64,000 nucleotides of DNA, taken from NCBI RefSeq assembly GCF_054482595.1, contig NZ_CM137008.1. One strand, 5' to 3'. Positions 4,777-44,173 of this stretch are shown piece by piece (position 1 is the stretch's first letter; every line of letters begins with the position of its first letter). The notes under the pieces are model-generated. The model saw only the letters and a list, made by a program, of their open reading frames with translations, made no database searches and had not been told where the DNA came from. Both the position numbers and the translations under genes were made by a program.

Positions 4777-4804
4777 GCCTGATGCGCTACGCTTATCAGG
4801 CCTA
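4777..4804. repeat. REP-type palindromic element (gcctgatgcgctacgcttatcaggc)
   Basis: Imperfect palindrome with GCCTGATG...CATCAGGC arms typical of enterobacterial REP. Confidence 0.7.
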
Positions 4805-4840
4805 CACGTATCCTGCAATATATTGAATTCGCAGGTTTTT

Positions 4841-21266: not shown

Positions 21267-21410
21267 ACGGTAAAGCCCTCACCGAAGCGAGGGCTTGAAG
21301 GAGAAGGGTTATGATGCGACTTGTCATCATACTGATTGTACTGTTACTCATAAGTTTCAGCGCTTATTAACAGTCAGTCACAGGGGAGGAGCAATCCTCC
21401 CTTACCCTTA
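21267..21410 (-). ncRNA. sibC: Sib-like antisense sRNA (probably SibC), copy 2; ends approximate
   Basis: Minus-strand promoter TTGACA-N17-TAATTT (21445..21417); antisense to ibs ORF; 3' hairpin. Confidence 0.55.
21311..21370 (+). CDS. ibsC: Ibs-family type I toxin, 19 aa (MMRLVIILIVLLLISFSAY), matches my recollection of IbsC
   Basis: Short ORF with AGGAG SD; serA-ygfA intergenic location matches the sibC/ibsC locus. Confidence 0.75.
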   Translation: MMRLVIILIVLLLISFSAY

Positions 21411-21416
21411 CTCACT

Positions 21417-21445
21417 AAATTAGGTTAAAGAATCAACGATGTCAA
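21417..21445 (-). promoter_or_regulatory. Sib copy 2 promoter (TTGACA-N17-TAATTT)
   Basis: Identical to copy 1 promoter. Confidence 0.6.
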
Positions 21446-22091: not shown

Positions 22092-22277
22092 AGGGAATCT
22101 CCGAGATGCCGCCGCAGGCTGTAACCCTTGAACCCTTGGTTCAAGGTGAATGTGTCGTCGCAGTTTTAAGGCTTCTCGGACGGACCGAGCATGCTCACCA
22201 ACCGCGGAGCGCCACATTCTTGTGGTATGAAATATCGGCTCAGGGGACTGGCCCGCTTGCGAACATCTCAGAGAAAT
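22092..22277 (-). ncRNA. ssrS: 6S RNA
   Basis: Minus-strand sequence begins ATTTCTCTGAGATGTTCGCAAGCGGGCCAGTCCCCTGAGCC and ends ...CATCTCGGAGATTCCCT, matching recalled 6S RNA; sits between zapA and ygfA. Confidence 0.85.
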
Positions 22278-39132: not shown

Positions 39133-40866
39133 GTGAAACAACAGATACAACTTCGTCGCCGTGAAGTCGATGAAACGGCAGACTTGCCCGCTGAATTGCC
39201 TCCCTTGCTGCGCCGTTTATACGCCAGCCGAGGAGTACGCAGTGCGCAAGAACTGGAACGCAGTGTTAAAGGTATGCTGCCCTGGCAGCAACTGAGCGGT
39301 GTCGAAAAGGCCGTTGAGATCCTTTACAACGCCTTTCGCGAAGGAACGCGGATTATTGTGGTCGGTGATTTCGACGCCGACGGTGCCACCAGCACGGCTC
39401 TAAGCGTGCTGGCGATGCGCTCGCTTGGTTGCAGCAATATCGACTACCTGGTACCAAACCGTTTCGAAGACGGTTACGGCTTAAGCCCGGAAGTGGTCGA
39501 TCAGGCCCATGCCCGTGGCGCGCAGTTAATTGTCACGGTGGATAACGGTATTTCCTCCCATGCGGGGGTTGAGCACGCTCGCTCGTTGGGCATCCCGGTT
39601 ATTGTTACCGATCACCATTTGCCAGGCGACACATTACCCGCAGCGGAAGCGATCATTAACCCTAACTTGCGCGACTGTAATTTCCCGTCGAAATCACTGG
39701 CAGGCGTGGGTGTGGCGTTTTATCTGATGCTGGCGCTGCGTACCTTTTTGCGCGATCAGGGCTGGTTTGATGAGCGTAACATCGCAATTCCTAACCTGGC
39801 AGAACTGCTGGATCTGGTCGCGCTGGGGACAGTGGCGGACGTCGTGCCGCTGGACGCTAATAATCGCATTCTGACCTGGCAGGGGATGAGTCGCATCCGA
39901 GCCGGAAAGTGCCGTCCGGGGATTAAAGCGCTGCTTGAAGTGGCAAACCGTGATGCACAAAAACTCGCCGCCAGCGATTTAGGTTTTGCGCTGGGGCCAC
40001 GTCTCAATGCTGCCGGACGACTGGACGATATGTCCGTCGGTGTGGCGCTGTTGTTGTGCGACAACATCGGCGAAGCGCGCGTGCTGGCAAATGAACTCGA
40101 TGCGCTAAACCAGACGCGAAAAGAGATCGAACAAGGAATGCAAATTGAAGCCCTGACCCTGTGCGAGAAACTGGAGCGCAGCCGTGACACGCTACCCGGC
40201 GGGCTGGCAATGTATCACCCCGAATGGCATCAGGGCGTTGTCGGTATTCTGGCTTCGCGCATCAAAGAGCGTTTTCACCGTCCGGTTATCGCGTTTGCGC
40301 CAGCAGGTGACGGTACGCTGAAAGGTTCCGGTCGCTCCATTCAGGGGCTGCATATGCGTGATGCGCTGGAGCGATTAGACACACTCTACCCTGGCATGAT
40401 GCTGAAGTTTGGCGGTCATGCGATGGCGGCGGGTTTGTCGCTGGAAGAGGATAAATTCAAACTCTTTCAACAACGGTTTGGCGAACTGGTTACTGAGTGG
40501 CTGGACCCTTCGCTATTGCAAGGCGAAGTGGTATCAGACGGTCCGTTAAGCCCGGCCGAAATGACCATGGAAGTGGCGCAGCTGCTGCGCGATGCTGGCC
40601 CGTGGGGGCAGATGTTCCCGGAGCCGCTGTTTGACGGTCATTTCCGTCTGCTGCAACAGCGGCTGGTGGGCGAACGTCATTTGAAGGTGATGGTCGAACC
40701 GGTCGGCGGCGGTCCACTGCTGGATGGTATTGCTTTTAATGTCGATACCGCCCTCTGGCCGGATAACGGCGTGCGTGAAGTGCAACTGGCTTATAAGCTC
40801 GATATCAACGAGTTTCGCGGCAACCGCAGCCTGCAAATTATCATCGACAATATCTGGCCAATTTAG
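39133..40866 (+). CDS. recJ: ssDNA-specific 5'-3' exonuclease RecJ
   Basis: ORF track 577 aa, DHH motif (VTDHH). Confidence 0.93.
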   Translation: MKQQIQLRRREVDETADLPAELPPLLRRLYASRGVRSAQELERSVKGMLPWQQLSGVEKAVEILYNAFREGTRIIVVGDFDADGATSTALSVLAMRSLGCSNIDYLVPNRFEDGYGLSPEVVDQAHARGAQLIVTVDNGISSHAGVEHARSLGIPVIVTDHHLPGDTLPAAEAIINPNLRDCNFPSKSLAGVGVAFYLMLALRTFLRDQGWFDERNIAIPNLAELLDLVALGTVADVVPLDANNRILTWQGMSRIRAGKCRPGIKALLEVANRDAQKLAASDLGFALGPRLNAAGRLDDMSVGVALLLCDNIGEARVLANELDALNQTRKEIEQGMQIEALTLCEKLERSRDTLPGGLAMYHPEWHQGVVGILASRIKERFHRPVIAFAPAGDGTLKGSGRSIQGLHMRDALERLDTLYPGMMLKFGGHAMAAGLSLEEDKFKLFQQRFGELVTEWLDPSLLQGEVVSDGPLSPAEMTMEVAQLLRDAGPWGQMFPEPLFDGHFRLLQQRLVGERHLKVMVEPVGGGPLLDGIAFNVDTALWPDNGVREVQLAYKLDINEFRGNRSLQIIIDNIWPI

Positions 40867-40956
40867 CGTCATCTTCTCTATAAAAAAGAGCGTGGATTGG
40901 GTACAATCCCGCTCTTATCACCGCATTTTGACTAGCTCAATAAAAGAAATCAGACC

Positions 40957-42055
40957 ATGTTTGAAATTAATCCGGTAAATAATCGCATTCAGGACCTCAC
41001 GGAACGCTCCGACGTTCTTAGGGGGTATCTTTGACTACGACGCCAAGAAAGAGCGTCTGGAAGAAGTAAACGCCGAGCTGGAACAGCCGGATGTCTGGAA
41101 CGAACCCGAACGCGCACAGGCGCTGGGTAAAGAGCGTTCCTCCCTCGAAGCCGTTGTCGACACCCTCGACCAAATGAAACAGGGGCTGGAAGATGTTTCT
41201 GGTCTGCTGGAACTGGCTGTAGAAGCTGACGACGAAGAAACCTTTAACGAAGCCGTTGCTGAACTCGACGCCCTGGAAGAAAAACTGGCGCAGCTTGAGT
41301 TCCGCCGTATGTTCTCTGGCGAATATGACAGCGCCGACTGCTACCTCGATATTCAGGCGGGGTCTGGCGGTACGGAAGCACAGGACTGGGCGAGCATGCT
41401 TGAGCGTATGTATCTGCGCTGGGCAGAATCGCGTGGTTTCAAAACTGAAATCATCGAAGAGTCGGAAGGTGAAGTGGCGGGTATTAAATCCGTGACTATC
41501 AAAATCTCCGGCGATTACGCTTACGGCTGGCTGCGTACAGAAACCGGCGTTCACCGCCTGGTGCGTAAAAGCCCGTTTGACTCCGGCGGTCGTCGCCATA
41601 CGTCGTTCAGCTCCGCGTTTGTTTACCCGGAAGTCGATGACGATATTGATATCGAAATCAACCCGGCGGATCTGCGCATTGACGTTTATCGCGCGTCCGG
41701 CGCGGGCGGTCAGCACGTTAACCGTACCGAATCTGCGGTGCGTATTACTCACATCCCAACCGGGATCGTGACCCAGTGCCAGAACGACCGTTCCCAGCAC
41801 AAGAACAAAGACCAGGCCATGAAGCAGATGAAAGCGAAGCTTTATGAACTGGAGATGCAGAAGAAAAATGCCGAGAAACAGGCGATGGAAGATAACAAAT
41901 CCGACATCGGCTGGGGCAGCCAGATTCGTTCTTATGTCCTTGATGACTCCCGCATTAAAGATCTGCGCACCGGGGTAGAAACCCGCAACACGCAGGCCGT
42001 GCTGGACGGCAGCCTGGATCAATTTATCGAAGCAAGTTTGAAAGCAGGGTTATGA
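40957..42055 (+). CDS. prfB: peptide chain release factor 2, made by programmed +1 frameshift (frame 1 40957..41031, then 41033..42055)
   Basis: [25 protein letters not shown] then in-frame TGA at 41032-41034; downstream frame (ORF track 41174..42055) carries GGQ motif (SGAGGQHVN); 365 aa total. Confidence 0.9.
41017..41035 (+). promoter_or_regulatory. prfB autoregulatory +1 frameshift site (internal SD AGGGGG, then CUU UGA C)
   Basis: cttagggggtatctttgac. Confidence 0.85.
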
Positions 42056-42064
42056 GGAACCAAC

Positions 42065-43582
42065 ATGTCTGAACAACACGCACAGGGCGCTGACGCGGTA
42101 GTCGATCTTAACAATGAACTGAAAACGCGTCGTGAGAAGCTGGCGAACCTGCGCGAGCAGGGGATTGCCTTCCCGAATGATTTCCGTCGCGATCATACCT
42201 CTGACCAATTGCACGCAGAATTCGACGGTAAAGAGAACGAAGAACTGGAAGCGCTGAACATCGAAGTCGCTGTTGCTGGCCGCATGATGACCCGCCGTAT
42301 TATGGGTAAAGCGTCTTTCGTTACCCTGCAGGATGTGGGTGGCCGCATTCAGCTGTACGTTGCCCGTGACGATCTGCCGGAAGGCGTTTACAACGAGCAG
42401 TTCAAAAAATGGGACCTCGGCGACATCCTCGGCGCGAAAGGTAAACTGTTCAAAACCAAAACCGGCGAACTGTCTATCCACTGTACCGAGTTGCGTCTGC
42501 TGACCAAAGCACTGCGTCCGCTGCCGGATAAATTCCACGGCTTGCAGGATCAGGAAGCGCGCTATCGTCAGCGTTATCTCGATCTCATCTCCAACGATGA
42601 ATCCCGCAACACCTTTAAAGTGCGCTCGCAGATCCTCTCTGGTATTCGCCAGTTCATGGTGAACCGCGGCTTTATGGAAGTTGAAACGCCGATGATGCAG
42701 GTGATCCCTGGCGGTGCCGCTGCGCGTCCGTTTATCACCCACCATAACGCGCTGGATCTCGACATGTACCTGCGTATCGCGCCGGAACTGTACCTCAAGC
42801 GTCTGGTGGTTGGTGGCTTCGAGCGTGTATTCGAAATCAACCGTAACTTCCGTAACGAAGGTATTTCCGTACGTCATAACCCAGAGTTCACCATGATGGA
42901 ACTCTATATGGCTTACGCAGATTACAAAGATCTGATCGAGCTGACCGAATCGCTGTTCCGTACTCTGGCACAGGATATTCTCGGTAAGACGGAAGTGACC
43001 TACGGCGACGTGACGCTGGATTTCGGTAAACCGTTCGAAAAACTAACCATGCGTGAAGCGATTAAGAAATATCGCCCGGAAACCGACATGGCGGATCTGG
43101 ACAACTTCGACTCTGCAAAAGCGATTGCTGAATCTATCGGTATCCACGTTGAGAAGAGCTGGGGTCTGGGCCGTATCGTTACCGAGATCTTCGAAGAAGT
43201 GGCAGAAGCACATCTGATTCAGCCAACCTTCATTACTGAATATCCGGCAGAAGTTTCTCCGCTGGCGCGTCGTAACGACGTTAACCCGGAAATCACAGAC
43301 CGCTTTGAGTTCTTCATCGGTGGTCGTGAAATCGGTAACGGCTTTAGCGAGCTGAATGACGCGGAAGATCAGGCGCAGCGCTTCCTGGATCAGGTTGCCG
43401 CGAAAGATGCAGGTGACGACGAAGCGATGTTCTACGATGAAGATTACGTCACCGCACTGGAACATGGCTTACCGCCGACAGCAGGTCTGGGGATTGGTAT
43501 CGACCGTATGGTAATGCTGTTCACCAACAGCCATACCATCCGCGACGTTATTCTGTTCCCGGCGATGCGTCCGGTGAAATAA
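42065..43582 (+). CDS. lysS: lysyl-tRNA synthetase (constitutive)
   Basis: ORF track 505 aa, [33 protein letters not shown]. Confidence 0.95.
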
Positions 43583-43603
43583 GCATTACGTTATGCTCAT
43601 AAC

Positions 43604-43627
43604 CCCGGCAAATGTCGGGGTTTTTTA
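43604..43627 (+). terminator. lysS intrinsic terminator (ccccggcaaatgtcgggg + T6); overlaps idi stop codon
   Basis: Hairpin plus TTTTTT. Confidence 0.7.
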
Positions 43628-44173
43628 TTTAAGCTGGGTAAATGCAGATAATCGTATTCTGGCTTCGCGATTTGTCGCCTGCATCACCATCCACGGACTG
43701 AATGCCCACGGCGTGGCATCAATACCGCGTAATACATCTGCTAAATCACACCATTGATAATCCATCACTTCATCATCGTTGATCTGTAACGCACTGGTGG
43801 TGCGTGCGGCAAATACCGGACACACTTCATTTTCCACAATGCCATTCGGATCGGTGGCGCGATAGCGAAAGTCAGGATAGATAGATTCAGGAGGCGTAAT
43901 TTCCACGCCAAGCTCATAACGGCAACGGCGGATCACCGCGTCTTCGTTGCTTTCTCCCAGTTGTGGGTGCCCACAAACCGAGTTAGTCCACACGCCAGGC
44001 CATGCTTTTTTGCTCAGAGCGCGACGGGTAACTAATAATTGTCCTTTGGCATTAAACAGCCAACTGGAGAACGCGAGATGTAAGCGGGTGTCTGCCGTGT
44101 GTGCGGCATACTTTTCCAGCGTACCCGTGGGAACTCCCTGTGCATTCAATAAAATGACGTGTTCCGTTTGCAT
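43625..44173 (-). CDS. idi: isopentenyl-diphosphate delta-isomerase
   Basis: ORF track 182 aa, [25 protein letters not shown]. Confidence 0.92.

Follow-up and report, generated by a model that had tools for sequence, protein, structure and literature searches.

Anatomy and conservation of the prfB +1 frameshift site in an E. coli chromosome

The +1 frameshift in E. coli prfB, and the autoregulation of RF2 that goes with it, were described by Craigen and Caskey in 1986 and are reviewed in PMC12421855. In the mechanism set out there, RF2 competes with a CUU-to-UUU slip, which is promoted by an internal Shine-Dalgarno (SD) sequence and involves displacement of the E-site tRNA. The autoregulatory function has been established for the exact E. 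coli sequence (PMC12421855, PMC5373646). Ribosome profiling at the native locus gave about 28% frameshifting with the RF2 of K-12 and about 21% with Ala246 (B-type) RF2 (PMC5373646). The motif is also widespread: a survey of 12,753 genomes found it in 64% of them, with the consensus AGGGGG-N3-CTTTGAC and never with TAG as the stop codon (PMC12421855). The prfB site is the classic example of a gene that senses the activity of its own product via recoding. The frameshift efficiency in vivo is about 20-30%.

We describe here the prfB site in a window of E. coli DNA, the window being the whole stretch of 64,000 nucleotides that was analyzed. The site is an already known, textbook case, and it lies in an ordinary E. 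coli chromosome.

Anatomy of the frameshift site

The letters at 41017-41035 of the window are CTTAGGGGGTATCTTTGAC. The original prediction, made from the letters of the window, held that an intact prfB frameshift site lies here, that frame 0 ends at UGA after a CUU as codon 25, and that AGGGGG precedes this stop. All of these points were borne out. The frame-0 ORF of prfB (40957-41034, plus strand) consists of an ATG and 24 more codons, followed by TGA (41032-41034) as codon 26. The TGA stands directly behind CTT (codon 25, Leu, 41029-41031), and AGGGGG was found at 41020-41025, 3 nt upstream of CUU and 6 nt upstream of the stop. The cassette AGGGGG-UAU-CUU-UGA-C is complete and exact, and spans codons 22-26. 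Its 3-nt spacer UAU (Tyr24, 41026-41028) would occupy the E site while CUU occupies the P site, and the spacing is that given in PMC12421855. The slippery CUU U occupies 41029-41032, and U41032 would remain undecoded, which agrees with solved RF2, where the product reads ...RGYL-DYD.... The premature UGA is an RF2-specific stop and is followed by C at 41035; the resulting weak UGA-C context (41032-41035) also agrees with PMC12421855.

The remainder of RF2, including GGQ, had been assigned to the +1 frame, and this too was correct. The +1 frame has no stop codon from 40979 until the TGA at 42053-42055 and carries both the SPF and the GGQ motifs. Upstream of 41174 it has no ATG, GTG, or TTG, and for this reason the ORF lister gives just 41174-42055, the truncated piece of 293 aa that the prediction had mentioned. 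The two frames are jointly open in one stretch of 56 nt only, 40979-41034, which has the cassette at its 3' end. Because this stretch is unique, the change of frame must fall there.

The window contains a single copy of the 16-mer AGGGGGTATCTTTGAC; by chance, 0.02 matches would be expected even with two mismatches tolerated. Its AGGGGG forms the strongest predicted anti-SD duplex in the prfB mRNA (-11.7 kcal/mol), and in anti-SD binding it belongs to the top 0.09% among all 10-mers of the window. Folding of 41000-41120 gave z = -0.49 relative to shuffled sequences, that is, no signal of a downstream RNA structure. The known prfB mechanism requires no such structure, and the result agrees with it.

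By analogy with published E. coli work on the identical sequence, the shift at this site would respond to RF2. Ribosomes would start at 40957 and translate 25 codons, after which the P site would contain CUU paired with peptidyl-tRNA-Leu and the A site would contain UGA-C. If RF2 is plentiful, UGA would be read and a 25-residue peptide would be released; if RF2 is scarce, the ribosome would pause. During the pause, AGGGGG would pair with the 3' end of 16S rRNA (the anti-SD) at an unusually short spacing of 3 nt, and this SD-anti-SD pairing would displace the E-site tRNA. The tRNA-Leu would then re-pair from CUU to UUU and GAC would be read next, and translation of the remaining 340 codons in the +1 frame would give RF2 of 365 aa. 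We consider it very unlikely that the 25-residue peptide released at UGA has a function of its own. None of the findings here supported a separate function, and the 25 residues are conserved because the segment is the N-terminus of RF2.

The joined product and its surroundings

Joining 40957-41031 to 41033-42055 skips T41032 and gives a prfB product of 365 aa, with SPF at residues 205-207 and GGQ at residues 250-252, in which the junction peptide is ...DVLRGYLDYDAK.... The first segment (40957-41031, plus strand) provides RF2 codons 1-25; its start agrees with the start of the RefSeq CDS, and residues 1-25 align to RF2 in the PDB. The second segment (41033-42055, plus strand) provides codons 26-365 and the TGA. 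When the joined product was compared with the E. coli RF2 chains of PDB entries 1gqe and 1ml5, residues 1-365 aligned with E values of about 1e-240 and one substitution each, and both alignments were continuous over the Leu25-Asp26 junction. The NCBIfam model TIGR00020 (prfB) matched residues 12-362 in a single stretch that includes the junction, with 525.9 bits against a cut-off of 370, whereas RF1 models scored under their cut-offs. A comparison with annotated prfB had been proposed as a check. On identical DNA of strain XH990 (NZ_CP019359.1), RefSeq records prfB between recJ and lysS as a two-piece joined CDS with the label 'programmed frameshift'. The joined product is full-length RF2, and no single-frame ORF encodes it, as the original prediction had maintained.

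Residue 246 of the joined product is Ala (RASGAGGQ; codon 246 lies within 41690-41700). E. coli B and the majority of strains share Ala246, and the laboratory K-12 lineage has the less active Thr246 (PMC5373646). The presence of Ala246 rather than Thr246 therefore indicates that the window does not come from a K-12 strain. The RF2 encoded here also has Leu298, where 1gqe has Val.

Downstream of prfB, lysS (42065-43582) begins after 9 nt on the same, plus strand; it is part of the context and lies outside the recoding site. The terminal stop of prfB (42053-42055) is again the RF2-specific UGA. An SD-like GAGGAA that would serve lysS, with its ATG at 42065, overlaps this stop (region 42053-42067). 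A scan of 40600-43800 for promoters and terminators returned one promoter-like site inside the gene and one terminator-like hairpin after lysS, with nothing above shuffle expectation, and a simple scan upstream of prfB found no sigma-70-like promoter. The first terminator-like hairpin after prfB (43601-43622) lies behind lysS, as would fit a shared transcript of the two genes. The 90-nt spacer between recJ and prfB contains an inverted repeat, AAGAGCG...CGCTCTT (40884-40917), which the terminator scan picked up on the minus strand only.

The 64-kb window as a whole is colinear with the chromosome of strain XH990 (NZ_CP019359.1), with 3 mismatches in total. Rfam gave no family at the frameshift site, and its matches in the window were limited to 6S RNA, two SIB RNAs, and ES036. 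The 6S RNA (ssrS, 22094-22277, minus strand, 139.8 bits) and the small RNA ES036/CssrF (4798-4840, minus strand, 42.5 bits, just over the gathering score) are both expected for an E. coli region. The SIB RNA/Ibs type I toxin-antitoxin system is present in two tandem copies between serA and fau (20903-21053 and 21295-21445, minus strand); the ibsC ORFs (20919-20978 and 21311-21370) are on the plus strand. Many genomes, including K-12-derived records, have a single copy at serA-fau, and the copy number of SIB/Ibs therefore differs between strains. Between argP and rpiA (15150-18520) there is a block of four genes, which encode a ferric/ferredoxin-reductase-like membrane protein, a DUF1471 protein, an FMN-dependent NADH-azoreductase, and a LysR regulator. 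Of 5,426 complete E. coli genomes, only 232 have this block at full length, and most of the others retain just a remnant of 4-9%.

Conservation of the cassette and alternative explanations

The DNA of prfB in the window is 100% identical to that of many E. coli chromosomes. A search of 5,426 complete E. coli genomes found the 71 nt around the site as exactly one copy per genome in 5,425, with an identical sequence in 4,407. The common variant that we inspected is a synonymous TAC>TAT change at Tyr27, downstream of the cassette. The weakest match in E. coli came from BH100 substr. MG2014 (NZ_CP024650.2, locus 163-285), which has AGGGG in place of AGGGGG. Its prfB is in a single frame (...LRGIFDYD...) and is recorded as a plain CDS. 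This run of four G reflects either a frameshift that was lost naturally or an assembly error in a homopolymer. If it is real, the frameshift would not be strictly indispensable; it has no bearing on the window in either case.

We also examined other bacteria. Species-representative genomes were scanned with a degenerate pattern for the codons of GGQHVNRTE, which lie about 680 nt downstream of the site, so that the sample was chosen via the GGQ codons and independently of the frameshift site. The scan returned 120 loci; 78 of them had SPF upstream of GGQ and were taken as RF2, and 72 had enough upstream DNA to be assessed. The cassette (YTTT-stop in the junction frame) was present in 61 of these 72 RF2 genes, with an SD-like run just upstream in 60 of the 61. 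In 54 genes the distance from the motif to the GGQ codons downstream is exactly 676 nt, the same as in the window, and the identical 16-mer occurs in 27 of the 72. The stop codon of the cassette was TGA in 59 of the 61, TAA in 2, and TAG in none. CTTT was invariant or nearly so across the sample, AGGGGG had near 2 bits per position with wobble positions included, and the spacer TAT was kept in 47-48 of 50 sequences. At wobble positions the 54 genes gave on average 1.87 bits of information within the cassette, compared with 0.25 in the sequence that precedes it and 0.42 in the sequence that follows. Since wobble positions are near-invariant, the nucleotides themselves are under selection, beyond the amino acids that they encode. 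This is in line with the survey of 12,753 genomes cited above (PMC12421855). Two variant cassettes were noticed in the sample, one in the Pantoea sp. Brub symbiont, a low-GC insect symbiont (L040), which has AGGGGGTAT-TTTTGAC with a Phe codon replacing Leu, and one at a second locus (L100), which has AGGGGGTAT-CTTTAAC with TAA replacing TGA. Variants of both types are described in PMC12421855.

We then weighed three other ways in which the two frames could be accounted for. Restoration of the frame in the RNA, through slippage of RNA polymerase on the G5 or the T3 run, is highly improbable. The short homopolymers GGGGG and TTT are indeed present, but at 3-5 nt they fall on the short side for slippage of this kind. 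Moreover, the elements that are conserved are translational: the stop is RF2-specific and in no case TAG, C comes directly next, and an SD-like sequence keeps a constant distance of 3 nt (PMC12421855). Ribosome profiling also shows that ribosome occupancy drops at the prfB UGA, as partitioning during translation predicts (PMC5373646). Transcriptional slippage was rejected because the conserved elements are all translational signals.

If the sequence had been misread or misassembled, or if a mutation had disabled the gene, prfB would really be a single-frame gene or else a pseudogene. A break of 1 nt near a G5 homopolymer is a typical sequencer error, and a public E. coli record, NZ_CP024650.2, differs by exactly one G in this run. 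Nevertheless, we regard the chance of this as negligible. Essentially every one of the 5,425 complete genomes of E. coli has the two-frame layout, once per genome; the cassette stands at the same position in the 61 RF2 genes from other bacteria; and the break coincides with the 16-nt cassette that is conserved at wobble positions. In addition, prfB is single-copy and essential. Error and pseudogene were rejected on the near-universal conservation of the cassette and of the two-frame layout.

Two separate products, namely a 25-aa peptide from frame 0 and an N-truncated RF2 initiated internally, for example at the ATG at 41174 from which the ORF lister draws its 293-aa ORF, were likewise rejected as having practically no chance, because homology to RF2 extends through the open +1 frame from codon 26 onward, upstream of 41174, because solved RF2 and TIGR00020 both match residues 26-72 in one stretch with the frame-0 residues 12-25, because the +1 frame has no start codon of the three kinds from 40979 to 41174, and because purified E. 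coli RF2 in the PDB has 365 aa and starts with MFEINP.

Taken together, the anatomy of the sequence, the identity of the product, the annotation, and the conservation support a canonical prfB site. All sequence-level features that define a prfB +1 frameshift site were found at this locus: identity as the class-I release factor RF2, the stop codon, CUUU, the following C, the SD-like sequence, the continuation in the +1 frame, and conservation. No sequence evidence against this reading was found. We therefore put the probability that the site is the canonical programmed +1 ribosomal frameshift of E. coli prfB, autoregulating RF2, at about 0.98. The split frame of prfB and the 293-aa ORF are what is expected of such a site, and an annotation should not treat them as signs of a pseudogene, of an erroneous frameshift, or of a new small ORF.

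Comparison with known systems

E. coli dnaX shares with prfB the use of programmed ribosomal frameshifting and an internal SD-like stimulator. In dnaX, however, the ribosome shifts by -1 at the heptamer A AAA AAG, which has a stem-loop downstream, whereas the shift in prfB is +1, at a stop codon, and has no significant predicted structure. Compared with the bacterial prfB motif, the window has the consensus throughout, with the SD-like AGGGGG, the 3-nt spacer, CTTT, TGA, and C (PMC12421855). The variants that prfB carries elsewhere, such as CGGGGG, GGAGG, TTTTTGAC, and a TAA stop, are absent from the site in the window. The closest known system is prfB of E. coli K-12 and B, which has the same gene order recJ-prfB-lysS and the same 365-aa product, with DNA that is 95-100% identical across E. 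coli. RF2 of K-12 differs in having Thr246 where the window has Ala246, but the cassette AGGGGG UAU CUU UGA C at codons 22-26 is the same, and the site itself is without differences.
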